Assembly (NCBI RefSeq): GCF_000015025.1
Contig: NC_008578.1
Location: forward strand, 1,200,001-1,232,000
Reading direction: 5' to 3'
Source: Acidothermus cellulolyticus 11B
Lineage (GTDB): Bacteria; Actinomycetota; Actinomycetes; Acidothermales; Acidothermaceae
Length of the DNA: 32,000 bases
Positions 9,085 through 24,624 of this stretch are shown here, piece by piece (positions within the stretch are counted from its first letter, which is position 1; each line of letters opens with the position of its first letter). The notes beneath the pieces were generated by a model, which worked only from the letters and a program-made list of their open reading frames with translations, was not told the DNA's origin and did no database searches. Made by a program: the position numbers and the translations under genes.

Positions 9085-9168
9085 CCGGGTGGATTGTGCC
9101 GGGTGCGACGCGCGCGTACGGCACCTGTGAACGTCGGCCGTGTGCCGTGCTGATGGCGCGCGGGCTCA

Positions 9169-9211
9169 TTGACAAGCTCCAGACGCCTTCGTATCGTTCG
9201 TATACAAACGA
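9169..9211 (+). promoter_or_regulatory. Putative promoter (TTGACA-17-TATCGT) with overlapping operator-like palindrome S1 (TCGTTCGTATACAAACGA, 9194-9211)
   Basis: The -35 TTGACA is at 9169-9174 and the -10 TATCGT at 9192-9197, with a 17-nt spacer. The 18-nt palindrome (8 of 9 arm positions pair) starts inside the -10. It lies 21 nt upstream of the aldehyde dehydrogenase GTG at 9232 and is related to sites at 15514 and 17801. Confidence 0.55.
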
Positions 9212-9231
9212 CATTGAGGGAGGACCCGCGC

Positions 9232-10671
9232 GTGCGTCTGGAATTCCGCAACTTCATTGATGGCCGCGTCGTCGATCCCTCGGGGGATGAGGCTCTGCCC
9301 ATCACGGATCCGCACTCCGGTGAAATCATTGGATATTCCGCCCGCTCGAATGCGGAAGACATCGATCGAGCGTGTAGGGCCGCGGCGGAGGCCTACACCA
9401 CGTGGCGGGATACCACCCCCGCGGAACGATCTCGGGTCTTGCTGCGGATCGCTGATGACATCGAAGAGCGTGTCGAGGAGCTGGCCCGCTTGGAGAGCCG
9501 GAACACTGGTAAGCCGCTTCAGGTGCTTCGCAGCGTCGAGATACCCGCGATGGTCAACCAGATTCGGTTTGTCGCAGGAGCCGTACGAGCGCTCGTCGGA
9601 CCGACGGCCGGGGAGTATCGTCGTGGGTCGACCTCGTATCTGCGCCGTGAGCCGGTCGGTGTCGTGGCACAGATCACCCCGTGGAATTACCCCCTCATCA
9701 TGGCCGCGTGGAAGTTCGCACCCGCGATCGCGGCCGGAAATACCGTCGTGTTGAAGCCGTCCGAAACGACGCCGGTCACGACTCTGGCACTTGCCGAGCT
9801 TGCCTCGGCTCACTTGCCTCCCGGTGTCTTCAACGTCGTCTGCGGTGACGCCGCTACCGGCGCCGCACTCGCGGCACATCCCCTCCCACAGCTTGTTGCC
9901 ATCACCGGTTCCGTGGCCGCAGGCGTGGCCGTCGCCGAAACGGCGAGCCGGGATGTGAAGCGGCTGCACCTCGAACTTGGCGGCAAGGCCCCCGTCCTAG
10001 TGTTCGACGATGTCGACATTCCCAAGGCGGCGGCGGCGATCGCCGAGGCGGGGTTTTTCAACGCGGGTCAGGATTGCACCGCGGCGACGAGGGTTCTGGC
10101 CGCTCGCGACATTGCTGACGACCTGACTGCGGCATTGGCCAAAGAAGCGGCGGACATTCCGACGACCTTTGCGTACGGTGTCGAACATCCGCGCGCCTTG
10201 GTGCCCGCCCTCAACAACGTCCGGCAGTTGGAACGCGTAGCCCGGCATATCGAGACTCTGCCGCCGCATGCAGTCGTGGTTGCAGGCGGCCGCCGACAGG
10301 GCGAACGCGGTTTTCATTTCGCACCCACGGTTGTTGCACACCTTCACGAACATGACGACATCACCTGTACGGAGGTCTTCGGTCCGGTCATCACCGTCGA
10401 GACCTTCGCAACCGAAGAGGAAGCGGTCCGTCGTGCGAATGACGTGCCATACGGACTCGCATCAAGCGTGTGGACGACAGACCTGGCGCGGGCGATGAGA
10501 ATCGCGCGGAGGCTCGATTTCGGTTGCGTCTGGATCAACGAACACGGCTCACTTGTTGCCGAGATGCCTCACGGAGGCTTCAAACACTCCGGTTACGGTA
10601 AAGATCTCTCGATTTACTCGGTCGAGGAGTACACCAGGGTCAAACACATCATGGCTCGATTCGACGAATGA
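9232..10671 (+). CDS. NAD(P)-dependent aldehyde dehydrogenase, gamma-aminobutyraldehyde dehydrogenase (PatD/YdcW)-like
   Basis: The GTG at 9232 follows GAGGGAGGA (9216-9224). Motifs are ELGGKAP, FFNAGQDCTAATR (catalytic Cys), EVFGPV and a C-terminal MPHGGFKHSGYGKDLSIYSVEEYTRVKHIM. The last closely resembles E. coli PatD as I recall it. Confidence 0.85.
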   Translation: MRLEFRNFIDGRVVDPSGDEALPITDPHSGEIIGYSARSNAEDIDRACRAAAEAYTTWRDTTPAERSRVLLRIADDIEERVEELARLESRNTGKPLQVLRSVEIPAMVNQIRFVAGAVRALVGPTAGEYRRGSTSYLRREPVGVVAQITPWNYPLIMAAWKFAPAIAAGNTVVLKPSETTPVTTLALAELASAHLPPGVFNVVCGDAATGAALAAHPLPQLVAITGSVAAGVAVAETASRDVKRLHLELGGKAPVLVFDDVDIPKAAAAIAEAGFFNAGQDCTAATRVLAARDIADDLTAALAKEAADIPTTFAYGVEHPRALVPALNNVRQLERVARHIETLPPHAVVVAGGRRQGERGFHFAPTVVAHLHEHDDITCTEVFGPVITVETFATEEEAVRRANDVPYGLASSVWTTDLARAMRIARRLDFGCVWINEHGSLVAEMPHGGFKHSGYGKDLSIYSVEEYTRVKHIMARFDE

Positions 10672-12008
10672 CGGGAGATACGGTGACGTCTGACCAGACC
10701 ACGGAGTCGGCCGTTCCAGGGCCGCGCAGTGCCGAGCTGCATCGCCGGCGGGAGGCTGCGGTCGCCCGGGGCGTGAGTTCCGTTGCACCCTTCTATGTCG
10801 CCGGCGCACGCGACAGCCGGCTCGTCGATGTGGACGGGAGATCGTATATTGACCTCACGTCCGGGATTGCGGTCGCCAATGTCGGCCATGCGCCAAAGCA
10901 CGTTATCGAGGCGATTCACGCTCAGGCTGAGAGTTTTCTGCACACCTGTTTCATGGTCGCGCCATACGAGCAGTATGTGGCGGTGTGCGAACGACTGAAT
11001 GCCCTAACGCCCGGTGCATTTGCGAAGAAAAGTCTCCTGGTCAATTCAGGGGCTGAAGCGGTGGAGAACGCTGTCAAGATTGCCCGCTATGCCACAAATC
11101 GGCCGGCCGTCGTTGTCTTTGAGAATGCCTATCACGGGCGCACCAACTTGACGATGGCGATGACCGCGAAAGCGCATCCGTACAAAGACGGATTCGGCCC
11201 CTTCGCGGGTGAAATCTATCGAGCGCCGATGTCGTATCCTTTTCGCGATCCGGCAGCCATGACCGGCGAGGAGGCCGCTGCGCGCGCCATCGACGTTATC
11301 GAGCGCTACGTCGGAGCGGCACGTGTTGCATGCGTCGTCATAGAACCGATCCAGGGTGAAGGAGGATTTGTCGTTCCCGCACCCGGATTCCTACCCACAT
11401 TGCGGCAGTGGTGCAGTGAAAACGATGTCCTCTTCGTCGCTGACGAGATTCAAACCGGGTTCGGACGGACCGGGCACATGTTCGCGTGCGAGCACGAGTC
11501 CGTCGTCCCCGACATTATGATTCTCGGTAAGGCTCTGGCGGGAGGTCTGCCGCTTGCCGCGGTGACTGGCCGCGCGGATCTCGTTGATCGGGTGCATCCG
11601 GGCGGGTTGGGCGGTACGTACGGTGGAAATCCGGTCGCGTGTGCGGCGGCGCTCGCCACCCTGCACCTTCTCGAGGCAATGAATGCGCCCGCCCGCGCCC
11701 GCGGAATTGAGAAGATCATGCGGCCGCGGCTGGATGCTCTCGCAGCTCGCTATCCGTTCATTGGCGACGTTCGCGGTCGGGGTGCCATGCTTGCCCTCGA
11801 GGTGGTGCGGCCGGGCACAAAGGATCCCGATGCGGCGCGGACAGCCGATATCGTGCGTTCATCGTATGACGAAGGTCTCGCAGTCCTAAGCTGCGGTATG
11901 TACAGCAATGTACTGCGGTTTCTGCCGCCGCTGAGTATCGACGACGCGCTGCTCGTGGAAGCGATGAACCGGCTCGACCACGTCTTCGAGCGGGTAGCCG
12001 CCGCTTGA
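10668..12008 (+). CDS. Class-III PLP aminotransferase, 4-aminobutyrate aminotransferase (GabT/PuuE)-like
   Basis: The ATG overlaps the upstream stop (ATGA at 10668-10671). Motifs are SGAEAVENAVKIAR, DEIQTGFGRTG and ILGKALAGGLP (PLP lysine). Confidence 0.85.
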   Translation: MTGDTVTSDQTTESAVPGPRSAELHRRREAAVARGVSSVAPFYVAGARDSRLVDVDGRSYIDLTSGIAVANVGHAPKHVIEAIHAQAESFLHTCFMVAPYEQYVAVCERLNALTPGAFAKKSLLVNSGAEAVENAVKIARYATNRPAVVVFENAYHGRTNLTMAMTAKAHPYKDGFGPFAGEIYRAPMSYPFRDPAAMTGEEAAARAIDVIERYVGAARVACVVIEPIQGEGGFVVPAPGFLPTLRQWCSENDVLFVADEIQTGFGRTGHMFACEHESVVPDIMILGKALAGGLPLAAVTGRADLVDRVHPGGLGGTYGGNPVACAAALATLHLLEAMNAPARARGIEKIMRPRLDALAARYPFIGDVRGRGAMLALEVVRPGTKDPDAARTADIVRSSYDEGLAVLSCGMYSNVLRFLPPLSIDDALLVEAMNRLDHVFERVAAA

Positions 12009-12021
12009 GTATCGTGGTGGC

Positions 12022-12738
12022 ATGCCGACGGTCCTCTTCATCGAGCACGATCACGTTTCTCCGCCAGGCCTCCTGGGTGACGCGTTCGAGAAATGCGGCT
12101 GGGACGTCGCAGAGTTTCTCGTCGTACCGCCTGAATCATTTGACAGCCCGGCGATAGACGTCCGTTTACCGGATCCGCTGCACTATGACGCGGTCGTGCT
12201 GCTCGGTGCTCCCTGGTCGGTGTACGACGAAGCGCTGCAGGAACGGTGGGTCGGGGAGGAAATCGCGTTGGCCCGACAAGCCGACGCCGAGGGCATGCCC
12301 GTCATCGGTGTCTGTTTTGGTGGTCAGCTTCTCGCCGCCACCCATGGTGGACGGGTCGAACGCGCGGCATGCGCTGAAGTCGGCTGGACGAGGATCCATT
12401 CCCGCGTCCCGGAGTTCATTCCGGAGGGTCCGTGGCTGCAATGGCATCAGGACCGATGGCACACACCAGCGGGTGCGGCGGAGCTCGCCCATAGCCTTGT
12501 TGCGCCGCAGGCCTTCATGCTTCGGGCGAACCTCGCTGTTCAATTTCATCCCGAAGCGGATGAAACCGAGGTGGCTCTCTGGCTGGAGGCCGGAGGCGCC
12601 GATTACGTGCGCCAGCACAACCTCGACCCCGACGAACTTCTTCGGATCACTCGTCGTGAGCAGGCGCGCGCCGCTCAGTGCACCGAGAAATTGCTCAAAG
12701 GGTACTTGGAGCGTGTTCACGACCTGAACCGCCGGTGA
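12022..12738 (+). CDS. Stand-alone class-I glutamine amidotransferase-like protein (candidate gamma-glutamyl-amide hydrolase)
   Basis: The nucleophile elbow is GVCFGGQLL and the His/Glu region is AVQFHPEAD. It lies 13 nt after the aminotransferase on the same strand. Confidence 0.75.
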   Translation: MPTVLFIEHDHVSPPGLLGDAFEKCGWDVAEFLVVPPESFDSPAIDVRLPDPLHYDAVVLLGAPWSVYDEALQERWVGEEIALARQADAEGMPVIGVCFGGQLLAATHGGRVERAACAEVGWTRIHSRVPEFIPEGPWLQWHQDRWHTPAGAAELAHSLVAPQAFMLRANLAVQFHPEADETEVALWLEAGGADYVRQHNLDPDELLRITRREQARAAQCTEKLLKGYLERVHDLNRR

Positions 12739-12864: not shown

Positions 12865-14109
12865 TCACGCGAGGGTGACCCGCACCGGCATCTTCTTCAC
12901 GCCGTGGATGAAGTTGGAACGGACGTACGAGACATCACCGGCCAACTCCATGCGCTTGATTCTGGGCAGGAGCGTCTCGAACATGATCCGGATCTCCATA
13001 CGGGCAAGCTTGTTGCCGAGGCAGAAGTGTGGGCTGCCCTTCCCGAACGTCACGTGATCATTAGGATGGCGCGTCACGTCAAACCGATACGGATCCGTGA
13101 AGACCTCCTCGTCGCGGTTGCCGGACGCGAACCACATCACGACCTTATCGCCGGCGCGAATGTGCTTTCCGTGCAGCTCGACGTCACGGGTGGCGGTACG
13201 GCGGAAGTGGTACACCGGTGACGCCCAGCGAAGGAATTCCTCCACCGCTTGTGGAATGAGCTCCGGCCTGTCTTGGAGCAGGCGCATCTGGTCGGGGTTG
13301 TTGATCAGGGCGAGCATCGAGTGGCTGATCGCGTGTCGAGTCGTCTCATTGCCGGCGATGACCAAGAGTAGGAAGTAGTTGTCGAAATCACGCTGGGAAA
13401 GCGGCACGCCATCCTCGGGCATCTGGTTGACGAGCTTGCTCACCAGATCCTGTCCGCTGCGGCCGCGTCGCTGCCGGGCAAGCTCACGACCGTATTCGAA
13501 CACCTCGAGCGCCGCGGGGGAGCGGAATGGAAGATGGCGATACTTGTTGCTCTCCGGACTGTCCAGAAGAACATCCGCATAGTCCGGATCGGTGTTCCCA
13601 ATCATGCGATTGCCCCACGCGATCAGCCTTCCGGTGTGGTGTTCCGGAACATCGAGCATGCGGGCGAGAACCTGAATGGGAAAGTCCGCGCTCACCTCGG
13701 AGACGAAATCGAATTCCTTATGCCGCAGAGCCGCCTCCACGGTCGCTCTCGTCAACCCTCGAAGAAAGGACTCGTAGCCCTTGAGGGTGGTTGTTCCGAA
13801 ATCCCTGACGAGCAGACGCCGCAGTGCATGATGACGCGGTCCGTCGGTCTCGAGCATGGAGCGGCGTATCTCCATCGTCTCCTCGTCGAGTTCCTCAAGG
13901 TTGACGAACTTCTCCGAGGTGAAGGTTTCCGGGTCCCGGTCCACCGCGACGATGTCGGCGTGCCGGGTGACCGCCCAGAAGCCCTTGTTGGGCGGCGGCT
14001 CAGGATTCCAGTACACCGGTTCTTCGCGGCGGAGATAATCAAACGCAGGCCATGCGCGGTCCTGCTCGAACATGTCGAGATCGGTGAGATCGACGGTTGT
14101 TTGCTGCAC
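12865..14109 (-). CDS. Cytochrome P450 monooxygenase (resembles the actinobacterial CYP124/125/142-type group)
   Basis: The heme-thiolate loop is FGKGSPHFCLGNKLAR, the I-helix is AGNETT, and ExxR is EEFLRW. The GTG start at 14109 has GGAGGA just upstream. It lies 44 nt downstream of the GS-like gene on the same strand. Confidence 0.9.
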   Translation of the reverse strand: MQQTTVDLTDLDMFEQDRAWPAFDYLRREEPVYWNPEPPPNKGFWAVTRHADIVAVDRDPETFTSEKFVNLEELDEETMEIRRSMLETDGPRHHALRRLLVRDFGTTTLKGYESFLRGLTRATVEAALRHKEFDFVSEVSADFPIQVLARMLDVPEHHTGRLIAWGNRMIGNTDPDYADVLLDSPESNKYRHLPFRSPAALEVFEYGRELARQRRGRSGQDLVSKLVNQMPEDGVPLSQRDFDNYFLLLVIAGNETTRHAISHSMLALINNPDQMRLLQDRPELIPQAVEEFLRWASPVYHFRRTATRDVELHGKHIRAGDKVVMWFASGNRDEEVFTDPYRFDVTRHPNDHVTFGKGSPHFCLGNKLARMEIRIMFETLLPRIKRMELAGDVSYVRSNFIHGVKKMPVRVTLA

Positions 14110-14153: not shown

Positions 14154-15503
14154 TTAGAGGTGGTAGAGATATTCACCGACTTCCCAGTCGGTCACGTAAT
14201 GTGCGAAGCGTTCCAGTTCGTTCCGCTTATAGGTCACGAACGCCGAGATCAGGGGCTTCCCTAGGATCTCCGTGAGCTCGGTGTCCGCCTCCAGGGCGTC
14301 AAGGGCGGCTTCGAGATTCCGGGGCAGAAGTCGGGAGCGGGACGCATCGTAACCGTATCCCTCGGTCGGCGGCGGCGGCGTGAGTTTCTCTTCGATGCCG
14401 AGGTACGCGCCGGCCACGACACTTGCGATGGCGAGATAGGGGTTGGCCGTCGCGTCTCCGAGACGGACTTCGATGCGTGTGGCGTCTCCGCGTTCGGGGG
14501 GAATCCGTACCATCGTGCTCCGATTGTCCAGCCCCCAGTCAATCAACCAGGATGCGAGCGTGTCGGGACCGAACCGTTTGTAGGAATTGATCGTGGGGTT
14601 ATTGAACGCGGCGAGAGCCGGCGCATGCGCGAGGATGCCTGCAACGGCGTGTTCCGCCAGCGACGACAGGCCGGTGGGAGCCGCCTCATCAGCAAACAGT
14701 GACCGATCGCTCGGATCCACGATGGAGAAGTGGAGGTGGAATCCCGAGCCGCCCTCCTCGTTGAACGGCTTCGCCATGAAGGTGGCGTGTTTGCCGGCGC
14801 GGCGGGCTAACTCCTTGACGGCCGTGCGGAAGCGGAAAGCGCGGTCCGCGGCGTCCAATGCGTGCGAGTGGCCAATATTGATCTCAAATTGCCCGCTGAA
14901 GAACTCGTGATTGCCCGCGGTGGCGCGAATACCGTAGCGGGCGAGCTGCCTGAGAAATTCGAGGAGCAGGTTTTCTGGGTCGCCCTTGCGCCCGGCCACG
15001 TAGACGTTGCCCGGTGCCTCGCCGTACCGCCGCCAACCGGACGACGACGAGCCCTCCAGGAGGTAGAACTCCATTTCCGGACCGACGACCGGAACGAGAT
15101 TCTCGGCTTCGCATCGACCCACCACAGAGCGCAGCACTGAGCGCGGGCTCTCCGCGCATGGGCGGCCGTCGGGCTCGACGATGTCAGCCAGGACGTGGGC
15201 GACGCCGTCCTCCCAGGGAATCTTGCGAACCGTCGACAGATCCGGCTTGGCAAGGACGTCAGGCAATCCGGCGTCGAGACCGCCGGCGACCGGTACGACG
15301 TCCCCCCTCGGGCTGGTGTGGAAGACCCCGCGGCAGAACGCAATGCCGCCTTCACCCAGGTGGTGCGCAAGCGTTTCGACGACAAGATCCCGGCCGCGTT
15401 CCGTTCCGATGAGGTCCGCGTATCCGATCCGCAGAACGTCGATTCCCTCGCTGCGCAGCTGCTCCGTCAGGCGCTCGACGTTACGTTGATCGTCGGACTG
15501 CAT
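14154..15503 (-). CDS. Glutamine synthetase-like gamma-glutamyl-amine ligase (GlnA3/PuuA/IpuC/TdnQ-type family)
   Basis: The protein is 449 aa. The GS catalytic-domain signatures are KPFNEEGGSGFHLHFS, NSYKRF and RIEVRLGDATANPYLA. The ATG at 15503 has AGGAGG 6 nt upstream. The context is accessory, not the housekeeping glnA locus. Confidence 0.85.
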   Translation of the reverse strand: MQSDDQRNVERLTEQLRSEGIDVLRIGYADLIGTERGRDLVVETLAHHLGEGGIAFCRGVFHTSPRGDVVPVAGGLDAGLPDVLAKPDLSTVRKIPWEDGVAHVLADIVEPDGRPCAESPRSVLRSVVGRCEAENLVPVVGPEMEFYLLEGSSSSGWRRYGEAPGNVYVAGRKGDPENLLLEFLRQLARYGIRATAGNHEFFSGQFEINIGHSHALDAADRAFRFRTAVKELARRAGKHATFMAKPFNEEGGSGFHLHFSIVDPSDRSLFADEAAPTGLSSLAEHAVAGILAHAPALAAFNNPTINSYKRFGPDTLASWLIDWGLDNRSTMVRIPPERGDATRIEVRLGDATANPYLAIASVVAGAYLGIEEKLTPPPPTEGYGYDASRSRLLPRNLEAALDALEADTELTEILGKPLISAFVTYKRNELERFAHYVTDWEVGEYLYHL

Positions 15504-15513
15504 TCATGACCTC

Positions 15514-15537
15514 CTATCGTTTGGTACCAAACGATAG
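15514..15537. promoter_or_regulatory. Perfect 24-bp palindrome S2 (CTATCGTTTGGTACCAAACGATAG), operator-like, in the divergent GS-like / ADC-MarR intergenic region
   Basis: CTATCGTTTGGT and ACCAAACGATAG are exact reverse complements. The palindrome abuts the RBS of the GS-like gene. On the minus strand its TATCGT can serve as a -10 with TTGCTC 17 nt upstream. It shares the core GTTTGG-NN-CCAAAC with the site at 17808-17821. Confidence 0.65.
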
Positions 15538-15675
15538 AACAGACGCGGGCGGTGAGCAATAGACTGGGCGGGTCCGACACGCGGGGGAGGGCGACGGTCT
15601 CGTAACCAGATTCCGAATCGCCGTCGTACTCTTTCCGCTCGGATGACCGCTGACGACCATAGGGTAGGTGATGCG

Positions 15676-16503
15676 ATGCGGGGATTCTTTTACCCACGGA
15701 CGCCGACCGGGCAGGCGTCGATTATTCCTGCGCCGCCTTGGTATTACTCCGGGGACATGTTGACCGTTGAGTACCGGACCGATCCCGCTTTGGTGGCGGC
15801 CCTGCTGCCGCCTCCGCTGGAACCCGCTCCGGAGGATCCGGGCGCGGTCGCGATTATCTGGGCTGACTGGCAATCGTGCTCCGAAGGCGGCGCTGAGCTG
15901 CTTGATCCGGTCCGGGCACAGTACAAGGAAACGCTCGTCGTCGTCCGCTGCACGTATCGCGGTGAGATCTTTTCCCGCTGCGTCTTTATCTGGGTCGACA
16001 AGGACTTTGCCCTCGTCCGGGGGCTGCATCAGGGCTATCCGAAGAAGCTGGGCTCGATCTGGATGACACGGCCCCATCCCTACGGACGGGCCGCCCCCCG
16101 ACTCGAAGCGGGTGCCACGATAGCGGCCACGCTCGCTGCGGCGGACCGTCGGCTGGCACAAGCAGTCGTGACATTGCGCGATGTTGTCGAGGCACCCGGC
16201 TTCGTGAACAGCCATCCGATGGCACACCACCGCGTTGTCCCCGGGATAGCCAAAGGCGCGCCGGACGCCCTGAACGAGCTCATCCGATCCGCTGCCGCCG
16301 CGGTCACGGGCGGGCCCGTCTGGCGAGGTGACGCGTCCTTGGAGCTCTTTGAGTCGCCGACGGAGGAGCTTGCCGCACTCCGTGTCGATGAGATCATAGG
16401 TGGCTACTATCGGCAGGTGGGAGTCGTATGGGACGGCGGTGAGGTCCTCGCGCCGCACGGTTCGGGTGGCGGTGTACAGCCTCCCGAGGCGCGCGAATCA
16501 TAG
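15676..16503 (+). CDS. Acetoacetate decarboxylase (ADC)-family protein
   Basis: MRGFFYPRTPTG...YRTDPALVAALLPPPLEP aligns with the N-terminus of clostridial Adc as I recall it. The Schiff-base lysine context YPKKLG is conserved (HQGYPKKLGS). I preferred the ATG at 15676 (AGGGTAGG 7 nt upstream); the ATG at 15643 is an alternative. Confidence 0.8.
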   Translation: MRGFFYPRTPTGQASIIPAPPWYYSGDMLTVEYRTDPALVAALLPPPLEPAPEDPGAVAIIWADWQSCSEGGAELLDPVRAQYKETLVVVRCTYRGEIFSRCVFIWVDKDFALVRGLHQGYPKKLGSIWMTRPHPYGRAAPRLEAGATIAATLAAADRRLAQAVVTLRDVVEAPGFVNSHPMAHHRVVPGIAKGAPDALNELIRSAAAAVTGGPVWRGDASLELFESPTEELAALRVDEIIGGYYRQVGVVWDGGEVLAPHGSGGGVQPPEARES

Positions 16504-17067: not shown

Positions 17068-17752
17068 ACGCTTTGAAAATTGCCATCTGTGCTTGATCGC
17101 TCGGCGTCCCGTCTTCCGGATGCCATTGGATGCCGAGGCACCAACCCGCTTCACCGGACAGTTCGAACGCTTCCGGCGTGCCGTCCACGGCCCAGGCCAC
17201 TGGGCGAAGTCCGCGGCCCGGTCGAGCGACACACTGGTGATGAAAGCAGGACACCCACATGCTCGGCCGAGTGACGATCTGACCAAGGCGGCTGGCCGGC
17301 TCGACCGTCACGTCATGTTTACGATGACGGTGCGCCTCTTCCGCCATATCAACGACAAGGGAGCCTCCTAGGGCGACGGTCAAAACGTGAAGGCCGCGGC
17401 AGATTCCCAAGAGTGGAACCCCTCGGGCGACGCAGTGGCGTGCGCAGGCGAGATCCACCGCGTCTTGTTCGACGTCGACGTCGTACAGCGTCGGATGCTC
17501 CGCCTCGCCGTACCACTGGGGGTGCAGATCGCCGCCGCCGGGGAGCAGGACGGCGTCCGCCTCCCGGAGCCGATCCGCCAGCTCCGTTTCATCGATCGTG
17601 CCGTTGGGAGCCCAGGGCAAGAAGGACAACGGCTCGCCACCCGCCAGGTAGACGGCTTCGGCAAGGGCGCGCGCGGTGGCCAGTGCGGCAAAGCGAAGCG
17701 CAGAGGCGCGCGCCGAGAAGCGGGCCGGTATGAAGACCCGTGGACGTTGCAT
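17021..17752 (-). CDS. Gamma-glutamyl-gamma-aminobutyrate hydrolase (PuuD)-like peptidase C26 / class-I amidotransferase
   Basis: The nucleophile is GICRGLH, with CFHHQ and GIQWHPE. The C-terminal AIFKAFMDAAC resembles the E. coli PuuD tail. The 3' end overlaps the MarR 3' end by 47 nt. Confidence 0.85.
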   Translation of the reverse strand: MQRPRVFIPARFSARASALRFAALATARALAEAVYLAGGEPLSFLPWAPNGTIDETELADRLREADAVLLPGGGDLHPQWYGEAEHPTLYDVDVEQDAVDLACARHCVARGVPLLGICRGLHVLTVALGGSLVVDMAEEAHRHRKHDVTVEPASRLGQIVTRPSMWVSCFHHQCVARPGRGLRPVAWAVDGTPEAFELSGEAGWCLGIQWHPEDGTPSDQAQMAIFKAFMDAACRFATQDGRR

Positions 17753-17781: not shown

Positions 17782-17827
17782 TTGACCCGTCGACGACAGC
17801 CTATTATGTTTGGACCCAAACGAATAG
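17782..17827 (+). promoter_or_regulatory. Putative promoter (TTGACC-17-TATGTT) with overlapping operator-like quasi-palindrome S3 (CTATTATGTTTGGACCCAAACGAATAG, 17801-17827)
   Basis: The -35 is at 17782-17787 and the -10 at 17805-17810, with a 17-nt spacer. The core GTTTGG-AC-CCAAAC (17808-17821) matches S2 in 14 of 18 positions over 17806-17823. It sits between the divergent PuuD-like (start 17752) and HpaE-like (start 17860) genes. Confidence 0.55.
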
Positions 17828-17859: not shown

Positions 17860-19341
17860 ATGCCGCGTACGACGTCCGTCAGCGGAATTGAGGTTTCCGT
17901 TGACCACTGGGTGGGCGGCGAACGCCTCGCGTCGGATGCGACGTTCCCTGACATTTCACCGCTTGATCAGCAGGTTCTCGCCAATGTCGCCCGCGGCGGA
18001 CCGCGGGAAGTGAGCGCCGCGGTCGACGCCGCTTCGGCGGCGTTTCCGCAATGGGCGGCGACACCGCGCACCGAGCGGGCCGCCCTCCTGCACGCCGTAG
18101 CGGAAGGCATCGAGAAGCGTGTCGACGATCTCGCACTCGTCGAAACGTTGGACAACGGGGGGTTGCTCCGGTCCCATCGTCGGAGTGTGATTCCCCGCGC
18201 CGCGTATAACTTTCATTTCTTTGCGGATTTTCTCTTGCAGCTCGGTCATGAGGATTTCGAGACACGAGGACATAGAAACCACATTTCGTGGCAACCGGCA
18301 GGAGTCACGGCGGTCATCACGCCGTGGAATGCACCGTTGATGCTCGCCACCTGGCGGGTCGCACCCGCCCTAGCCGCCGGCAATACCGTCGTGCTCAAGC
18401 CCCCGGAGTGGGCGCCGTTGACGGCATCACTCCTCGCCGACATTACCGCTGAAGCCGGGCTGCCGCCAGGCGTCTTTAACGTCGTGCAGGGTATTGGGGA
18501 GGAGGCCGGTGCCGCACTGGTGCGCGATCCCCGGGTACGCCGTATCGCCTTCACCGGCTCGGTTGCGACCGCGCGCGCCATCGGTCACGCGGCAGCGGAG
18601 AACGTCATCCCCGTCTCCTTCGAGCTGGGAGGCAAGAATCCGTTCATTGTCTTTCCCGACGCCGACCTGGACCTCGCTGTACGACACGCGGTGGATCAGT
18701 ACGACAACGCCGGCCAGGTCTGTCTCGCCGGCACGCGATTGTACGTCGCCGACGCCGTCTACGACGAATTCCTTGAGCGGTTTCTCCAGGCGGCTGCGGC
18801 GTGGCGGGTAGGGGACCCGCGCAGCGAAGACGTCGACATGGGCCCGCAGATTCATCCCGACCATCTTGCGCGCATTGACGGATACGTCCGCCGCGCGAAA
18901 GCCGCCGGGGCGACGGTCCTACTCGGCGGCGGCCCGCATCCGGAGCTGGGCGGTCTGTACTACCAACCCACCTTATTGACGAATGTTGCCGATGACAGTG
19001 AGATCAACCGCGAAGAAGTCTTCGGTCCTGTCATTGTCCTGCATCGATTTACGGACGAAGACGAAGTCATCCGGCGTGCGAACGACAATATCTATGGGCT
19101 CGCGGCGATGGTCTTTACCGGCGACCGGTCACGGGCGGAGCGCGTCGCGGACCGGCTGGTCGCCGGCACCGTCTGGGTGAACTGCTTCTACGTCCGCGAC
19201 TTGCGGGCGCCGTTCGGCGGCGCGCGGTTGTCCGGTATCGGCCGGGAAGGCGGCACCTGGTCGTTCGACTTCTACGCGGAGGTCAAGAACACGGTGACCG
19301 CCCCGAGCGGCTGGTTGATAAAGGAGGCGAATGGTGGGTGA
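17860..19341 (+). CDS. Ring-fission semialdehyde dehydrogenase (5-carboxymethyl-2-hydroxymuconate / 2-hydroxy- or 2-aminomuconate semialdehyde dehydrogenase, HpaE-like)
   Basis: The ATG at 17860 follows GGGAGGG. The sequence is collinear with E. coli HpaE as I recall it: HWVGGE, IPRAAYNFHFFADF, FELGGKNP, NAGQVCLAGTR and VRDLRAPFGGARLSGIGREGG. Confidence 0.85.
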   Translation: MPRTTSVSGIEVSVDHWVGGERLASDATFPDISPLDQQVLANVARGGPREVSAAVDAASAAFPQWAATPRTERAALLHAVAEGIEKRVDDLALVETLDNGGLLRSHRRSVIPRAAYNFHFFADFLLQLGHEDFETRGHRNHISWQPAGVTAVITPWNAPLMLATWRVAPALAAGNTVVLKPPEWAPLTASLLADITAEAGLPPGVFNVVQGIGEEAGAALVRDPRVRRIAFTGSVATARAIGHAAAENVIPVSFELGGKNPFIVFPDADLDLAVRHAVDQYDNAGQVCLAGTRLYVADAVYDEFLERFLQAAAAWRVGDPRSEDVDMGPQIHPDHLARIDGYVRRAKAAGATVLLGGGPHPELGGLYYQPTLLTNVADDSEINREEVFGPVIVLHRFTDEDEVIRRANDNIYGLAAMVFTGDRSRAERVADRLVAGTVWVNCFYVRDLRAPFGGARLSGIGREGGTWSFDFYAEVKNTVTAPSGWLIKEANGG

Positions 19342-20245
19342 AGTCGTCGGTGCGGGACTGCTGTCCCATGTGCCAACGATCATGTTGCCGGAGTCCACGC
19401 GGCGTGAGTTGTACGAAGGCAAAGACACCACGCTCGTCGACGGACTGCGTCGGCTTCGTACTGAAGTCTTTGAAACGCTCGACTATGACACGGTCGTCGT
19501 CCTTGACTCGCACTGGGCGACCACCGTCGAGTTCGTTGTGACGGCACACCCGCTCCGGGCCGGCCTCTTTACCTCAGAAGAGCTGCCGCGCGGCATGCGT
19601 CGCATCCCTTACGACTTCATGGGCGATCCTGATCTCGCACATGCCATCGCCGCAGCCGCGGAGAGACACGGCACCTGGATCACGGCAATCGACGATCCAT
19701 ATTTGCCAATCTTTTACGCCACGGTCAATCTCTGGAAGTATCTGGGGGAGGGACTCGATCGGAGGTGGATCTCCCTCAGTGTCTGCCAAACCGCAGATAT
19801 GGAAGACTTTCTGCGCGCCGGTCGAGCCCTTGGCGAGGCAATCATCAACTCTGATCGCCGTGTCATACTCATCGCATCCGGCGCGCTGAGCCATACCTTC
19901 TGGCCGCTCCGCGAATTGCGGAAGCATGAAGCCGCGGGTGTTGAACACATCTTCAGCAGGGAAGCCGCCGATGCCGACAACGAGCGGCTTGCCTGGTTCC
20001 AGAAGGGTGATCACGCTCAGGTGCTCCGGACGATGGGGGAGTTCTACCGTTTCAAGCCGGAGGCGAAATTTGGTCACTACCTTCTGATGATGGGCGCACT
20101 CGGCGAGGAGGCCTGCACGGCACCCGGGCGGTTATTCAGTGCATATGAAAATTCGATCGGCACGGGACAAGTCCACGTGTGGTTCGATCGTCCAGAAGGA
20201 GGCTTTCCCGCTCCGCGCGCGACAGACACTCGTGGCGATGACTGA
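19331..20245 (+). CDS. Class III (LigB-type) extradiol ring-cleavage dioxygenase, HpaD/HpcB-like
   Basis: Motifs are LSHVPTIM, VVLDSHW, IASGALSHTFW and IGTGQVHVWF, as in homoprotocatechuate 2,3-dioxygenase (HpcB) and the related AmnB/LigB enzymes. The start (ATG 19331 or GTG 19334) overlaps the upstream stop, and AAGGAGG is at 19321-19327. Confidence 0.85.
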   Translation: MVGEVVGAGLLSHVPTIMLPESTRRELYEGKDTTLVDGLRRLRTEVFETLDYDTVVVLDSHWATTVEFVVTAHPLRAGLFTSEELPRGMRRIPYDFMGDPDLAHAIAAAAERHGTWITAIDDPYLPIFYATVNLWKYLGEGLDRRWISLSVCQTADMEDFLRAGRALGEAIINSDRRVILIASGALSHTFWPLRELRKHEAAGVEHIFSREAADADNERLAWFQKGDHAQVLRTMGEFYRFKPEAKFGHYLLMMGALGEEACTAPGRLFSAYENSIGTGQVHVWFDRPEGGFPAPRATDTRGDD

Positions 20246-21110
20246 GGTCGAGCGCGTTACCGAGTACCGCCGGATACTCCTCGACGGCGCGGAAACCCGC
20301 GTCGAGCGGCACGGTGACCTATTGATCGCACCAGACGGCCGACGTGTTCCGGTCGAGAAAGCGGTTCATCTCCCTCCCGTTCAGCCAACAAAGATTATCG
20401 CGGTACACCTCAATTACCGCAGCCGCGTCGAGGAGTTTCACGCGCGGCTTCCGCCGGCTCCCACCTACTTTCACAAGCCGACGACGGCGCTCAACGCTCA
20501 CGGAGGCGCCGTCGTGCGGCCGCAACGATGCCGTTGGCTCAACTTCGAAGGTGAATTCGCTGTGGTGATCGGTAGGCCATGCCGCAACATCCGGCCGGAT
20601 GACGCGATGGACTACGTCGCCGGATTCACCATAGCGAACGATTTCGGGCTGCACGACTTCCGGGACACGGATGCAGGGTCCATGCTTCGCGTCAAGGGCT
20701 CCGATACGCTCTGCCCTCTGGGCCCGGGACTCGTCGTCGGCTGGCAACCGCAGGGCAAGCGCCTGCGTACCTATGTCAACGATCGCGTCGCTCAGGATGC
20801 GTCAACAGACGAGATGGAGTGGAGCCCCGCGTATCTCATCGCCGACATCGCCCGCACCATCACCCTGCTGCCCGGTGACGTGATTCTCACCGGTACACCC
20901 GCGGGCTCGCGTCCGGTCGAACCAGGTGACGTTGTCACGGTGGAGGTCGAAGGCCTCGGCCGCCTGGTCAACTACGTTGTCGAAGGACCAATACCGGTGC
21001 GTGATGACGTCGGCGCGCAGCCGTCGTCATCAGAAGAAGTGGTCTCCACCGCCCTCGGCGGCGATTGGGAGTTCCGAGGCATTCGGCCTCCCCGCCGTGC
21101 GGTGGAGTGA
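20238..21110 (+). CDS. Fumarylacetoacetate hydrolase (FAH)-family enzyme (HpaG/HpcE-type decarboxylase/isomerase or hydratase, single domain)
   Basis: The ATG at 20238 (or GTG at 20232) overlaps the dioxygenase stop (ATGACTGA). FAH-fold motifs are KIIAVHLNYRSR, NFEGEFAVVIG and GDVILTGTPAG. Confidence 0.8.
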   Translation: MTEVERVTEYRRILLDGAETRVERHGDLLIAPDGRRVPVEKAVHLPPVQPTKIIAVHLNYRSRVEEFHARLPPAPTYFHKPTTALNAHGGAVVRPQRCRWLNFEGEFAVVIGRPCRNIRPDDAMDYVAGFTIANDFGLHDFRDTDAGSMLRVKGSDTLCPLGPGLVVGWQPQGKRLRTYVNDRVAQDASTDEMEWSPAYLIADIARTITLLPGDVILTGTPAGSRPVEPGDVVTVEVEGLGRLVNYVVEGPIPVRDDVGAQPSSSEEVVSTALGGDWEFRGIRPPRRAVE

Positions 21111-21149
21111 CCCGGTGTATCAACCACTGCCACAGGAAAACGGGAGTCA

Positions 21150-21371
21150 ATGATCATGCGGATTGTCGTTGATCTGACGAAATGCCAGGATCACGGACAG
21201 TGTGTCTTCTCATGCCCGGAAGTGTTCTCGCTGGACGAGAACGGGAAGCTGTCTTTTCGAAAGTACGCGCAAGAGCTCTACCGATCGGAGCTCATTTCAG
21301 AGGAGCTGCGCGACAAGGTCGAAGAGGCGGCCGACGTCTGCCCCACCCAGGCAATTCTTATTGAGGAGTAA
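21150..21371 (+). CDS. Small ferredoxin, [3Fe-4S]-type P450 redox partner
   Basis: The protein is 73 aa. The cluster motif is C-QDH-GQ-C ... C-P (CxxHxxC...CP), as in actinobacterial P450-associated ferredoxins. The start is ATG 21150 or 21156. Confidence 0.85.
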   Translation: MIMRIVVDLTKCQDHGQCVFSCPEVFSLDENGKLSFRKYAQELYRSELISEELRDKVEEAADVCPTQAILIEE

Positions 21372-21374
21372 AAG

Positions 21375-22619
21375 GTGCAACGCGTCGTCGTGGTCGGCGC
21401 GTCGGTAGCGGGACTTCGAGCGGTTGAATCGCTGCGCAGGAACGGATTCGCCGGCGAAATCCTCGTTATCGGCGGTGAGCGCTGGCCGCCGTACAACCGC
21501 CCGCCGCTCTCCAAGACCGTTCTCACGGCTACCGAATTGCCGGGCTTCGATGAGATCGCGCTTCCTCTTTCGCCACGGATCGGTGACGTCCAATGGCGGT
21601 TGGGTGTCCGTGCGGCGGCGTTGGACGTGGACGCACGCGTCGTCGTCCTCGAGGACGGCCAAACGGTCGAGTGGGACGGTCTCGTTATCGCGACCGGACT
21701 GCGACCGGTGCGGTTGGCTGTCCCCGGGCCGACGGTGAGGCGGTACGTGCTTCGCAATTTTGATGACGCGCGGGCACTCCGAGACGTGCTGCAGCCCGGT
21801 GCCCGGCTTGTCGTGATCGGTGCGGGGTTCATTGGTTGCGAGGTCGCCTCCGCCGCGAGGGAACGCGGGGTCCACGTGGTCGTTGTCGGACGCTCGGAAT
21901 ACCCTCTTCCCGGGCTGGGCGACATTCTGGGAAGCGAACTGCGGAGACTTCACGAGACACATGGCGTCCGCTTCCTCGGAGCACGAGCGGTCGTTGCTTT
22001 CGAGGGAACCGACCATGTACGCGGTGTAGTCCTCGACGACGGCACCGAACTGGCCGCCGACATCGTCGTTGAAGCAATCGGCGGCGCCCCGGAGACGGAT
22101 TGGCTCGTAACCACCAAGCTCGACATCCACAACGGCGTGCGGTGTGACGGAATGTTACGAGCACTCGACATTTCGGGACAGCCCATACCCAACGTCGTGG
22201 CATGCGGTGATGTCGCACGAGTGCCCCTGCTGCGCGGGGCGGGAATTGAAGGCCGAGTGGAGCACTGGTCAATGGCCATTGAGACGGGACGGTACGCCGG
22301 CCGCACCCTCGCTGCATCCTTGTCCGGTGCGGCGGCAGGTGCGCCGTCTGTGCCGATGGTGCCGACGTTCTGGTCAGACCAATATGGCGTTCGGCTCTCC
22401 GGCGTGGGTCTGCCTGAGATGCATGACGGCGAGATCCGGGTACGGCATGACAGCGCGGCCGGCGAAGTCGCGATCTCGTACTTCCGGGCCGGACGGTTGA
22501 TCGGCATCGCTGCACTCGGCTGTGCCGCACGACTCCCGGAGTTTTACGACGCGGTCCGGCGCTCCTGGCAGGATGAGGGCCACCCGGTCTCGACCGTGAC
22601 TCGGTCGTCGCCGCGCTAA
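21375..22619 (+). CDS. FAD-dependent ferredoxin-NAD(P)+ reductase (pyridine nucleotide-disulfide oxidoreductase family)
   Basis: The GTG at 21375 lies 3 nt after the ferredoxin stop, with GAGGAG upstream. The FAD fold is VVVVGASVAGLRA, the NAD fold is LVVIGAGFIGCEVA, and ACGDVA is also present. Confidence 0.88.
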   Translation: MQRVVVVGASVAGLRAVESLRRNGFAGEILVIGGERWPPYNRPPLSKTVLTATELPGFDEIALPLSPRIGDVQWRLGVRAAALDVDARVVVLEDGQTVEWDGLVIATGLRPVRLAVPGPTVRRYVLRNFDDARALRDVLQPGARLVVIGAGFIGCEVASAARERGVHVVVVGRSEYPLPGLGDILGSELRRLHETHGVRFLGARAVVAFEGTDHVRGVVLDDGTELAADIVVEAIGGAPETDWLVTTKLDIHNGVRCDGMLRALDISGQPIPNVVACGDVARVPLLRGAGIEGRVEHWSMAIETGRYAGRTLAASLSGAAAGAPSVPMVPTFWSDQYGVRLSGVGLPEMHDGEIRVRHDSAAGEVAISYFRAGRLIGIAALGCAARLPEFYDAVRRSWQDEGHPVSTVTRSSPR

Positions 22620-22829
22620 GCCGGCGGCCTTCGCGCGGTGTGTTTCTGTTGGTCAACAACAATGTGACGATCTGTTCAGGGGTCTTGTCAGAAGATAGTT
22701 CGGGCCCTAATATCTCACCAGACGCGTGGCTCATCATTACGAGACCGAGTAGTTGACGGTGCCCGTCGGTACCGCCGCGGCTGCCGTCGTTCGAACGCGT
22801 CTTCCTATCGTGTCGATCGAGGAGGCCCT

Positions 22830-24380
22830 ATGGTAAGCGCTTCCGGAGAGCGCGGCGCAATGCTGGCGGCGGTTGAGGCAAGAGCCCCGTCGCGACACCT
22901 GTGGCGAGATCGGATTGCGGTCATCGGCATTGTTTTTTATGTGGTTGCGGCATCCGCGCCGCTGGTTGGCATGTCCGGTGCGGTTCCCGTGGCCATCGGC
23001 CTGGGGAATGGTTCCGGGACGCCCGGCGCTTACCTCGCGGTCGGTATCGCGCTCCTCATCTTCAGCGTGGGTTACGCCGCCATGAGCAGCAAAGTCACCA
23101 ATGCCGGGGCATTCTTCGCCTATGTAGGCCGTGGACTCGGCGTACGGGCCGGAATTTCTTCCGCCTTTGTGTCTATCTTCGCGTACGTCACGATCCAACT
23201 CGCGATTTATGGCTTCATGGGCGGGCTGGTCGCGCAGGAAGCCAAGCAATATCTCGGCATCTCCCTTCCCTGGTGGGGATGGGTCTTTATCGCCTGGGGC
23301 CTTGTGCTTCTCCTTTCCCTCTTCAGCGTGGATGTCGGCGCTAAAGTTCTTGGCGGCTTTATGATTCTTGAGCTGAGCTCGCTCCTCATCATGGCTTTCG
23401 CTGTCATCTTCCGCGGCGGCGGCCCGCAAGGACTCAGTGTGTCGGCGTCGTTCGCGCCAAGCCATGTCTTCGTCGGCGGCCTCGCCGGATCGGCTGGAAT
23501 CGCGTTGGCGTTCGCGTTCGCCTCCTATATTGGCTTTGAGGCGACGGCGATTTACGGCGAGGAGTCACGGGATCCGAAGCGTACGGTTCCGGTGGCTACC
23601 TACGCGGCTGTGGGAACGATTGCCCTGCTCTTCGCCGTTACGTCGTGGGGAATTGTGAGCGGCTTAGGGCAAGGCCGCGTCGTCGACGAGACGCTGAAGA
23701 TTTCTACGGTTGGTGATACACCGCTGGCGGATCCCGCACAAGTCATCTTCCACGTCGCCACGCAGTACGTTGGATCGTGGCTCGCGGATCTCATGCGCAT
23801 TCTCGTGATCTCCAGCCTTTTCGCCGGCCTGCTCGCGTTCCAGAACGCCAATGCGCGGTATTTCTACGCGCTGGGGCGTGCCGGCGTCCTGCCGAAGGCT
23901 CTGAGTCACGTCTCACGGCGCGGATCCCCGATGTACGGAACGCTGACGATGTCCGGGCTCACTGCCCTCGTGGTGCTCATCTTCATGGCGAAGGGCTGGG
24001 ACCCGGTGCTCAACCTCTTCTATTGGTCCAGTGCCATTGCCGTCATGGCGATCGTCATAGTGGAAATTCTGGTCTCCGTTGCGGTGATTGCCTTCTTCCG
24101 GCGTGATCATTCCGATACCCGGCTCTGGAACACCGTGGTCGCGCCGATCCTGGCCATTGCCGCCCTCGGTATCGGTCTCTACCTCCTCATGGCCCGGTTC
24201 GGGCTTCTCGCCGGTACCGCAGCAGCCGGGGTCGATCCCACGAAGACGGCGTGGGCGCTGTCACCAACGGGATGGGTGCTCATTGCGCTGCCGTTCGTCA
24301 TGCTCATCGTGGGTCTTGTCGTAGCGCTTGCCCGACGGCGGAGCATCGACAGCCAGGTCGTTGCCGATCTGGTGAGCTGA
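22830..24380 (+). CDS. APC-superfamily amino acid/amine permease
   Basis: The protein is 516 aa with about 12 hydrophobic segments and Gly/Ala-rich TM helices typical of APC transporters. The ATG follows GAGGAGG (22819-22825). Confidence 0.8.
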
Positions 24381-24431
24381 CGGTACGCGTGGTGCGCGCA
24401 GGTTAGCCTCGCGCTGTCCGAGTACTGACCG

Positions 24432-24487
24432 GGGACGTTCGCGCGTTTCCCCGGACCGGAGTCCTCCCCGAACCGCGCGAACGTCCC
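24432..24487 (+). terminator. GC-rich hairpin (14-bp perfect stem, 28-nt structured loop) downstream of the permease; possible factor-independent terminator without a U-tract
   Basis: GGGACGTTCGCGCG (24432-24445) pairs exactly with CGCGCGAACGTCCC (24474-24487). It begins about 50 nt after the permease stop. No T-run follows, so the assignment is tentative. Confidence 0.35.
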
Positions 24488-24624
24488 GGGTTCTCGCCTG
24501 CGCCGGACGCCGGCCCGACAGAGCGCCTGCGGTCCGTAGGCGGCTCAAGACACGGGGCGATCCTGATCCGCGGCGCACCCCAGTCATCCCCAGGAGTGCG
24601 CCGCGGCGTGCGTACGGTGGAACC

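Follow-up and report, generated by a model that had tools for sequence, protein, structure and literature searches.

An operator-linked catabolic regulon inserted at the coaE-uvrB junction of Acidothermus cellulolyticus 11B, with a predicted role in the degradation of masked arylalkylamines

The homoprotocatechuate (Hpa/Hpc) pathway converts an aromatic ring with a CH2COOH side chain to CO2, pyruvate and succinic semialdehyde. In the isopropylamine (Ipu) and cyclic-amine (Pip/Mor) pathways, a gamma-glutamyl amide is the substrate of a cytochrome P450 that has a dedicated ferredoxin and reductase, and a hydrolase and an aldehyde dehydrogenase (ALDH) act afterwards. Glutamine synthetase (GS)-like enzymes can also glutamylate aromatic monoamines, as reported for PauA7 (PMC6529630). 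Here we analyzed a 32,000-nucleotide stretch of Acidothermus cellulolyticus 11B (contig NC_008578.1, positions 1,200,001 to 1,232,000; hereafter the window), which has a G+C content of ~65%. This organism is a hot-spring thermophile with a 2.44-Mb genome. We found that one coordinated catabolic regulon fills the interval between coaE and uvrB in this window, as a lineage-specific insertion into a conserved junction. The fuller reading, in which one regulon was inserted and serves to degrade a p-hydroxyphenyl-alkylamine, most likely tyramine or dopamine, while the amine is kept masked, has in our judgment slightly better than an even chance of being correct.

The coaE gene stops at position 9084 and uvrB starts at 24625, so that the interval covers 9085-24624 (15,540 bp). 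The initial annotation of this DNA had placed 14 genes there, and Pfam searches and open reading frame (ORF) positions gave the same count and coordinates, each of the 14 genes having Pfam support. Proteins were assigned with Pfam, with NCBIfam scores set against the curated cut-offs, and with the best solved relatives among the Protein Data Bank matches; the start of ALDH1 was set by the gene call in a contig of the same species (L081). The two borders and the genes between them are as follows.

8443..9084, + strand: coaE (dephospho-CoA kinase), left border; Pfam CoaE 8.8e-51; 56-62% identical to coaE of three relatives (L169-L171), where it lies directly 5' of uvrB.
9232..10671, + strand: ALDH1, aminobutyraldehyde-dehydrogenase subfamily; Pfam Aldedh 6.7e-149; NF010000 648.8 bits, passing the cut-off of 615.
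10668..12008, + strand: GabT, 4-aminobutyrate:2-oxoglutarate transaminase; TIGR00700 561.6 against a cut-off of 506.65 and NF004714 678.3 against 639, both passed.
12022..12738, + strand: class-I glutamine-amidotransferase-like amidohydrolase (GATase); Pfam GATase 9.8e-13; GVCFGG and HPE motifs.
12865..14109, - strand: cytochrome P450, CYP125-related; Pfam p450; best solved relative CYP125MRCA (8vxi), 413 bits, ~55% identity.
14154..15503, - strand: GS-like protein, predicted gamma-glutamyl-amine ligase; Pfam Gln-synt_C 1.4e-97.
15676..16503, + strand: acetoacetate decarboxylase (ADC)-like protein of the MppR/Sbi00515 subgroup, predicted hydratase-aldolase; Pfam ADC (PF06314) 4.6e-63; best solved relatives MppR (4jm3) and 4zbo/6eej.
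16552..17067, + strand: MarR-family regulator; Pfam MarR 1e-9; weak HpaR match, 41.7 bits against a cut-off of 121.
17021..17752, - strand: Peptidase_C26 protein (C26), predicted PuuD-like gamma-glutamyl amidohydrolase; Pfam Peptidase_C26 6.9e-44.
17860..19341, + strand: ALDH2, HpaE-like ring-fission semialdehyde dehydrogenase; HpaE 529 bits against 638; next model, 2-hydroxymuconic semialdehyde dehydrogenase, 484 bits.
19331..20245, + strand: LigB-family extradiol dioxygenase, HpaD-like; Pfam LigB 2.2e-22; HpaD_Fe 135 bits against 316.
20238..21110, + strand: FAA-hydrolase-family enzyme (FAAH), HpaG-like isomerase/decarboxylase; Pfam FAA_hydrolase 3.6e-56; HpaG C-terminal model 207 bits against 276.
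21156..21371, + strand: small single-cluster ferredoxin, 3Fe-4S/4Fe-4S type; Pfam Fer4_15 2e-15 and Fer4_13 1.2e-12.
21375..22619, + strand: ferredoxin-NAD(P)+ reductase, in an operon with ALDH2, LigB, FAAH and ferredoxin; Pfam Pyr_redox_2 2.1e-54 and Reductase_C.
22830..24380, + strand: APC-superfamily permease; Pfam AA_permease 2e-23.
24625..26742, + strand: uvrB, right border; UvrB Pfam domains; product 100% identical to UvrB of Acidothermus cellulolyticus 11B.

Along the interval, the ALDH1-GabT-GATase genes run on the + strand, P450 and GS-like on the - strand, ADC-like and MarR on the + strand and C26 on the - strand; the right part consists of ALDH2, LigB, FAAH, ferredoxin and ferredoxin reductase, followed by the permease, all on the + strand. 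The regulator, permease and redox partners that had been ascribed to the block are all there, and none of the MarR protein, permease and ferredoxin matched a specific NCBIfam family. The earlier gene list stood for all genes except the sixth, which is the + strand ADC-family ORF at 15676-16503. A - strand ORF at 15514-16458 was dropped as gene 6 because it had no family match and because L081 has the overlapping + strand ADC ORF as its called gene.

To the left of the block, the backbone consists of two ABC ATPase genes, polA (3093-5825), rpsA, a small conserved ORF and coaE, and to its right of uvrB, a GNAT/SCP2 gene, a Lactamase_B gene and uvrA. The identical arrangement was present in contigs of four independent sequencing runs of the same species (97-100% protein identity), in which uvrB, the GNAT gene and uvrA likewise stand to the right of the block. 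An exact search with the GS-like protein yielded a 3.6-kb contig and no other. The ORF at 7644-8417 (+), between rpsA and coaE, encodes a Ser/Thr/Pro-rich product with no Pfam match; its position is kept in three relatives at 48-64% identity, and the copy in one relative has a weak DUF3558 match. In the 244-bp spacer between the permease gene and uvrB (73% GC), we also observed a hairpin at 24428-24491 with 22-nt arms, 91% complementary, and a 20-nt loop, a candidate terminator that may insulate uvrB from island transcription.

The polA-rpsA-coaE-uvrB backbone is real and conserved, and the synteny comparison agreed with the earlier statement that coaE and uvrB are near neighbours in many other actinobacteria. 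Among the matches listed in a uvrB search, at least ~25 other actinobacterial loci have coaE 0.2-3.5 kb 5' of uvrB and no island gene with them. The best listed match in this contig search showed 81% identity, and closer relatives were then taken from a protein search. The three closest relatives available (L169-L171, one of them labelled Acidothermaceae) have uvrB proteins that are 84-86% identical and share the gene order ABC-ABC-GNAT-polA-methyltransferase-rpsA-ORF-coaE-uvrB with a coaE-uvrB gap of 35-465 bp. No island gene was found by tblastn in these three loci, and the island borders had no detectable similarity to the coaE-uvrB spacers of the relatives. Two genes of these relatives are missing from Acidothermus, consistent with its small genome: the methyltransferase gene that separates polA from rpsA (compare 5826-6200 in the window) and an MDMPI_N/DinB gene adjacent to the Lactamase_B gene (compare 26743-28830).

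The composition of the block also differed from that of the backbone. The raw GC content was 0.631 in the island and 0.668 and 0.654 in the flanks, and the G+C content at third codon positions (GC3) was 0.72 in the island and 0.81 in the flanks; per gene, it was 0.718 +/- 0.029 in the island compared with 0.798 +/- 0.037 in ten backbone genes (Mann-Whitney p = 5e-4), which bears out the impression from reading the letters that the block has more A/T-ending codons. The shift is modest, and its range overlaps that of the backbone (coaE 0.75, ABC1 0.73); the intergenic GC content of the island was 0.53-0.70. ARAGORN found no tRNA gene in the window, no integrase, recombinase or transposase was present among the 14 island products (Pfam) or as an ORF in the interval, and no direct repeats flanked the island borders, so the absence of integrase, transposase, tRNA and flanking repeats noted at the outset holds on all four counts. 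Thus, two marks of a classic mobile island, site-specific absence in relatives and deviant composition, are present, and the other two, an integrase and a tRNA or repeat, are absent. These results support the view that the block is accessory at the coaE-uvrB locus, because related genomes lack the genes there and GC3 is below that of the backbone, and that it is not a classic mobile island. Ancestral content had been expected to appear as the same genes in this interval of the relatives, with backbone-like GC3; instead, the relatives lack the genes and GC3 is lower.

To describe the gene set beyond Acidothermus, we used LigB as a reference. LigB homologues numbered more than 4,800 at E <= 1e-20, the top 120 being 73-80% identical, and the contexts examined comprised Actinomadura viridis, a Lentzea, two long metagenome-assembled genome (MAG) contigs and 80 metagenome contigs. 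Genes were counted in other organisms over 35 loci that are centred on LigB and span 9 kb or more, and these counts are lower bounds because many contigs are incomplete. On the ring-cleavage side, FAAH and the HpaE-like ALDH were each found in 30 of the 35 loci and the ADC-like gene in 28. The C26 (25/35), MarR (23/35), P450 (22/35), GS-like (21/35), GATase (17/35) and permease (13/35) genes followed, and the rarer members were a second ALDH (12/35), ferredoxin (10/35), ferredoxin reductase (7/35) and GabT (2/35); coaE and uvrB accompanied the cluster in none (0/35). The gene order was shuffled between lineages, with the set retained. The cluster is widespread in Actinomycetota, and the island represents one copy of it rather than an odd mix of modules. 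The initial annotation had not recognised the combination as a described pathway, and we likewise found no published description; the combination is, however, not peculiar to Acidothermus and recurs in ~30 other actinobacterial loci, many soil actinobacteria being among its carriers.

Several variants of this cluster were present. Clusters without P450 keep the ring-cleavage genes, and in two of them (Streptomyces lunaelactis plasmid pSLUN1 and Lentzea) a group II pyridoxal phosphate (PLP) decarboxylase gene lies 3' of FAAH, where P450 clusters have ferredoxin and its reductase. The best matches of this decarboxylase are tyrosine decarboxylases; it is intact in pSLUN1 (L172, 12855-14255) and a frameshifted remnant in Lentzea (L086, 11823-12415). 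A PDR-type reductase of ~332 residues occurs in L094, L096, L099 and L148 and is absent from the Acidothermus island. In L125, L126, L137 and L138, LigB homologues that are 72-73% identical stand beside ABC-transporter genes, without FAAH, ADC-like, GS-like or P450 genes.

The cluster is mobile on evolutionary timescales, because it lies on the linear plasmid pSLUN1 (L172), where it adjoins an IS5 transposase gene, and on a megaplasmid of an alphaproteobacterium. The latter, pABRDHK22 of Novosphingobium sp. EMRT-2 (L173, 201530-211992), carries the same gene set, namely a 2Fe-2S ferredoxin, ALDH, FAAH, ADC-like, a further ALDH, GS-like, P450, LigB and MarR; its LigB, FAAH and P450 are 56%, 69% and 43% identical to the island proteins, respectively. 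Horizontal acquisition of the Acidothermus block is therefore likely, as the cluster is plasmid-borne and adjacent to an insertion sequence elsewhere and is found across phyla. Nevertheless, some points weigh against this account. The databases searched yielded no near-identical donor, and outside the species LigB was matched at 80% identity at best (the closest homologues by taxon are Kineosporiaceae MAGs at ~77%); the nearest relatives are related only at the family level; and arrival by horizontal transfer stops short of proof, since the block may instead have been relocated within the genome. We consider it quite improbable that the block is ancestral here, with deletion in the relatives, or that it reached the site from elsewhere in the same genome. 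The absence of mobility genes, tRNA, repeats and a near-identical donor would fit such a history, as would the overlap of GC3 with some backbone genes and the small Acidothermus genome, which is rearranged relative to its relatives and lacks the methyltransferase gene between polA and rpsA. Ancestral presence, however, requires independent and precise deletions in every other lineage examined, and the cluster is mobile elsewhere, beside an IS5 element on a plasmid and in an alphaproteobacterium; a move within the genome may nevertheless have occurred. The insertion itself is an ordinary case of accessory metabolism placed in a conserved junction of housekeeping genes, here in the small genome of a thermophile.

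The promoters of the block revealed a shared palindrome with an approximate consensus of ATACGTTTGG-NN-CCAAACGATA. Three sites were present in the window.

9192..9213: operator-like palindrome TATCGTTCGTATACAAACGACA, 19 bp 5' of the ALDH1 start; one mismatch to TATCGTT-N8-AACGATA.
15515..15536: perfect palindrome TATCGTTTGGTACCAAACGATA, in the promoter region between the divergent GS-like and ADC-like genes.
17804..17825: operator-like palindrome with the core TGTTTGGACCCAAACG, in the promoter region between the divergent C26 and ALDH2 genes; differs from the 16-nt core at one position.

The spacer between the divergent GS-like and ADC-like genes holds the same motif in L084, L087, L098, L106, L111, L127 and L158, and the spacer between C26 and ALDH2 is likewise occupied in many other loci. 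With up to two mismatches allowed, the 16-nt core CGTTTGGNNCCAAACG gave 68 matches in the cluster loci of other organisms (743 kb) compared with 2 in 1.53 Mb of uvrB control loci. Nearly all of the matches in the cluster loci are in cluster promoters, between GS-like and ADC-like, C26 and ALDH2, permease and ALDH2, P450 and MarR, MarR and permease, or GS-like and GATase. The block is one regulon with a conserved palindromic operator, which is presumably bound by the MarR protein of the cluster. Because one site lies 5' of ALDH1, the ALDH1-GabT-GATase operon belongs to the same regulon in Acidothermus. At 22798-22820, an operator-like half-site, CTATCGTGTCGATCGA, which coincides in part with the ribosome-binding site of the permease gene, was too weak a match to be taken as a fourth operator.

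The strongest evidence for joint action of the amine and ring-cleavage genes is the operator that they share. We also weighed whether two modules are merely juxtaposed by chance and converge only at succinic semialdehyde: a Puu-like polyamine/gamma-aminobutyrate (GABA) module (GS-like, ALDH, C26 and GabT, with the P450 substituting for the PuuB oxidase) and a homoprotocatechuate meta-cleavage module (ALDH2, LigB, FAAH and ADC-like). Each half does resemble a known pathway, succinic semialdehyde is the end point of both of these pathways, gamma-Glu-putrescine has a free end that the P450 could oxidise, and some loci have one half only, L090 and L096 showing just ADC-like, ALDH, LigB and FAAH within the DNA at hand. 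Juxtaposition is nonetheless unlikely. A single operator motif marks the promoters of both halves in dozens of genomes. The ferredoxin and its reductase, moreover, are located in the ring-cleavage operon, in one transcription unit with ALDH2, LigB and FAAH by gene arrangement in Acidothermus, L084, L087, L106, L111, L127 and L134. In addition, the Actinomadura cluster pairs GS-like and P450 with the ring-cleavage genes and has no C26, PuuC or GabT. Finally, nothing in the cluster would produce homoprotocatechuate (HpaBC hydroxylase is absent); the 14 genes also include no HpaH hydratase or HpaI aldolase, and the ADC-like gene stands in their place.

For the inserted regulon as a route for a masked arylalkylamine, we propose the following sequence of reactions. 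The APC permease would import the amine, and the GS-like ligase would convert it with ATP to the N-gamma-glutamyl amide. The P450, with ferredoxin and reductase, would then hydroxylate the ring to a catechol (gamma-Glu-dopamine), which the LigB enzyme would open in the extradiol manner. ALDH2 would oxidise the resulting semialdehyde, the HpaG-like enzyme would catalyse isomerisation and decarboxylation, and the ADC-like enzyme would carry out hydration and retro-aldol cleavage to pyruvate and gamma-Glu-4-aminobutanal. Further on, ALDH1 would produce gamma-Glu-GABA, the C26 hydrolase would release GABA and glutamate, and GabT would convert GABA to succinic semialdehyde. The GATase, a second amidohydrolase, may hydrolyse surplus gamma-glutamyl-amine. 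By analogy with the homoprotocatechuate pathway, replacing CH2COOH with CH2CH2NH-R should yield R-substituted 4-aminobutanal along with CO2 and pyruvate; with gamma-glutamyl as R, this aldehyde is the substrate of PuuC, so that PuuD- and GabT-type enzymes complete the route. This carbon bookkeeping would account for all 14 genes. When the amine of DOPA is free, its extradiol cleavage products undergo spontaneous cyclisation, and 6-decarboxy-betalamic acid is the corresponding compound formed from dopamine (PMC11376341). This behavior offers a chemical reason for the glutamyl cap, which would keep the amine from closing a ring with the ring-fission aldehyde. An arylethylamine substrate is further supported by the tyrosine-decarboxylase-like enzyme encoded 3' of FAAH in the two P450-less variants and by the existence of GS-like enzymes for aromatic monoamines, such as PauA7.

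The trio of ring-cleavage enzymes was best matched by HpaE, HpaD and HpaG rather than by catechol-pathway enzymes, each below its cut-off, and therefore points to a catechol with a side chain. The ADC-like protein scored 174 bits against MppR and 160 bits against Sbi00515, compared with 29 bits against a true acetoacetate decarboxylase (3bgt), and 205 bits against the MppR family model (cut-off 380). Its Lys123 aligned with the lysine of the PK motif in MppR (K156) and Sbi00515 (K122), so that the Schiff-base lysine is kept. Pyruvate-aldolase activity is reported for MppR, and Saccharolobus induces ADC-like proteins together with a meta-cleavage pathway (PMC7820114).

On the amine side, the GS-like protein scored below the cut-offs for GlnA (TIGR00653, 286/429), type III GS (285/470) and gamma-glutamylputrescine synthetase (NF045547, 274/650); judged by these scores, it is neither a bona fide glutamine synthetase nor a PuuA equivalog. 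The C26 protein likewise reached only 70.7 of the 266 required for the PuuD equivalog. In other clusters, C26 usually lies 3' of an ALDH gene whose best match is PuuC, and an extra ALDH beside GabT is best matched by succinic semialdehyde dehydrogenase (SSADH).

These families also bear on whether the same logic applies to an arylamine with its nitrogen on the ring or one carbon away from it, such as 4-aminophenol (via gamma-glutaminyl-4-hydroxybenzene), aniline or hydroxybenzylamine, with gamma-Glu-glycine or gamma-Glu-beta-alanine as the end product instead of gamma-Glu-GABA. The pairing of a GS-like protein with a GATase is a hallmark of the aniline and 1-naphthylamine pathways (PMC11335346), 2-aminophenol dioxygenases are among the LigB relatives, and most clusters have neither GabT nor SSADH. 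However, where downstream enzymes are present, they belong to GABA-specific families and pass the cut-offs or are SSADH-like, and two variants carry the tyrosine-decarboxylase-like gene. The LigB enzyme, furthermore, is nearer to HpaD, its best solved relative (8iq8, 84.6 bits), than to AmnB (53.7 bits), and it is not accompanied by an AmnA-like second subunit. We therefore give such substrates a small share of our confidence.

The P450 gene adjoins the GS-like gene in most other loci as well as in Acidothermus. Its product has an insertion of 12 residues, LDSPESNKYRHL, and matched extant CYP125s with only ~240-250 bits, the reconstructed CYP125 ancestor being far nearer than any extant CYP125 or CYP124 structure. 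That ancestor hydroxylates sterol side chains (PMC12100521). In every locus seen, GS-like or ring-cleavage genes surrounded the P450 gene in place of a steroid-catabolic context, and this CYP125-related clade seems linked with GS-like genes and not with steroid catabolism. The nearest characterised relatives of the P450 hydroxylate terminal methyl groups, which would suit an aliphatic amine pathway (Ipu-like or for cyclic amines) in which the P450 hydroxylates an alkyl chain and LigB, FAAH and the ADC-like enzyme act on non-aromatic intermediates. A GS-like enzyme, P450, ferredoxin with its reductase, hydrolase and ALDH make up the gene logic of Ipu and Pip. Such a pathway would leave the conserved, co-regulated trio of extradiol dioxygenase, ring-fission ALDH and HpaG-like enzyme without explanation, and the P450-less variants retain the ring-cleavage genes; we regard it as highly improbable. 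A biosynthetic role, with MppR-like and DOPA-dioxygenase-like proteins as in enduracididine and lincomycin formation, was rejected, as a permease, two or three ALDHs, GabT and SSADH are present and no nonribosomal peptide synthetase, polyketide synthase or tailoring genes are.

Some observations weigh against the arylethylamine route through the inserted regulon. Every one of its steps is inferred from sequence comparison and analogy, and the specific upper-pathway assignments (GS-like, P450, HpaD/E/G-like and PuuD-like) are all below the curated cut-offs. The closest characterised relatives of the P450 are sterol/lipid omega-hydroxylases (CYP125/124), not aromatic hydroxylases, so that aromatic ring hydroxylation by this enzyme is an assumption, and no HpaF-like tautomerase is among the 14 genes. 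A VanA-like Rieske oxygenase (~368 residues), absent from the window, occurs in ten other loci (L092, L094, L096, L099, L102, L116, L135, L152, L164 and L167) and therefore suggests other or additional substrates for some clusters, such as phenethylamine or methoxylated amines. The two-carbon side chain is less secure than the general scheme, because GabT was found in only 2 of the 35 loci and because the ALDH1 subfamily is unlike that of the ALDH beside C26 elsewhere. The side-chain length is thus the least secure element, and aminophenol- or benzylamine-type substrates are possible.

More broadly, the cluster may represent an undescribed and widespread pathway in which biogenic arylethylamines (tyramine, dopamine), without any initial deamination, are gamma-glutamylated, hydroxylated by a CYP125-related P450 and cleaved at the ring with the amide still on, giving pyruvate and gamma-Glu-GABA through an ADC-like hydratase-aldolase under MarR operator control; this proposal is tentative, and we place it somewhat below an even chance. 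No description of gamma-glutamyl-tyramine or gamma-glutamyl-dopamine catabolism, of the gene combination or of the Acidothermus genome island was found in the full-text literature, the coverage of which was incomplete, so that an earlier description is possible. If correct, the proposal would add a third logic for bacterial tyramine and catecholamine catabolism beside amine oxidases and transaminases, with gamma-glutamylation as a protecting group carried through ring cleavage. It would also explain thousands of actinobacterial genes annotated as '3,4-dihydroxyphenylacetate 2,3-dioxygenase', 'glutamine synthetase family protein' and 'acetoacetate decarboxylase family protein', and would give a physiological role to MppR-like ADC enzymes beyond antibiotic biosynthesis and a non-steroid function to a CYP125-related P450 clade. 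The conserved operator and the small regulator make the hypothesis directly testable.

Upon comparison with known systems, we found resemblances to several pathways together with clear differences from each. As in the Puu pathway of E. coli (PuuA-PuuE), an ATP-dependent GS-like ligase would cap the amine with glutamate, an ALDH would act on the gamma-glutamyl-aminoaldehyde, and a C26 hydrolase would free GABA for GabT. In contrast to Puu, no DAO/FAD oxidase (PuuB) is among the 14 island genes, the aminoaldehyde is proposed to come from ring cleavage and not from diamine oxidation, and the GS-like and C26 proteins are far below the PuuA and PuuD equivalog cut-offs. The Ipu and Pip/Mor pathways, likened here by gene logic and not by sequence, have aliphatic substrates and no ring-cleavage enzymes. 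The island shares with the Hpa/Hpc pathway a LigB-type dioxygenase, a semialdehyde dehydrogenase and an FAA-family isomerase/decarboxylase in the order hpaE-hpaD-hpaG, together with a MarR-type regulator and predicted end products of pyruvate and a C4 aldehyde. It differs in that the trio is below the cut-offs, an ADC-like enzyme would replace hydratase and aldolase, HpaF, HpaH, HpaI and HpaBC are absent, and the predicted substrate bears an N-acylated aminoethyl instead of a carboxymethyl group.

The arylamine pathways for aniline (Atd/Tdn) and 1-naphthylamine (Npa, PMC11335346) have a GS-like ligase and a GATase-like hydrolase as well, a likeness at the domain level only. Their two-subunit Rieske dioxygenase removes the nitrogen to give a catechol; none is present in the window, where a P450 monooxygenase is found instead, and the glutamyl amide of the island is predicted to stay intact when the ring is opened. 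The ADC-like protein belongs to the same fold family as MppR and Sbi00515 and retains the Schiff-base lysine, although MppR is biosynthetic (enduracididine) and the island protein is predicted to be catabolic, acting by hydration and then retro-aldol cleavage. Similarly, the DOPA/dopamine 4,5-extradiol dioxygenases of betalain formation are LigB-type enzymes that open a catecholamine ring, but there the free amine cyclises to betalamic-type pigments (PMC11376341), whereas the amine in the island pathway is predicted to be blocked. Taken together, these comparisons suggest that the block joins the logics of Puu, Hpa and arylamine gamma-glutamylation, yet departs from each of them in its defining features.

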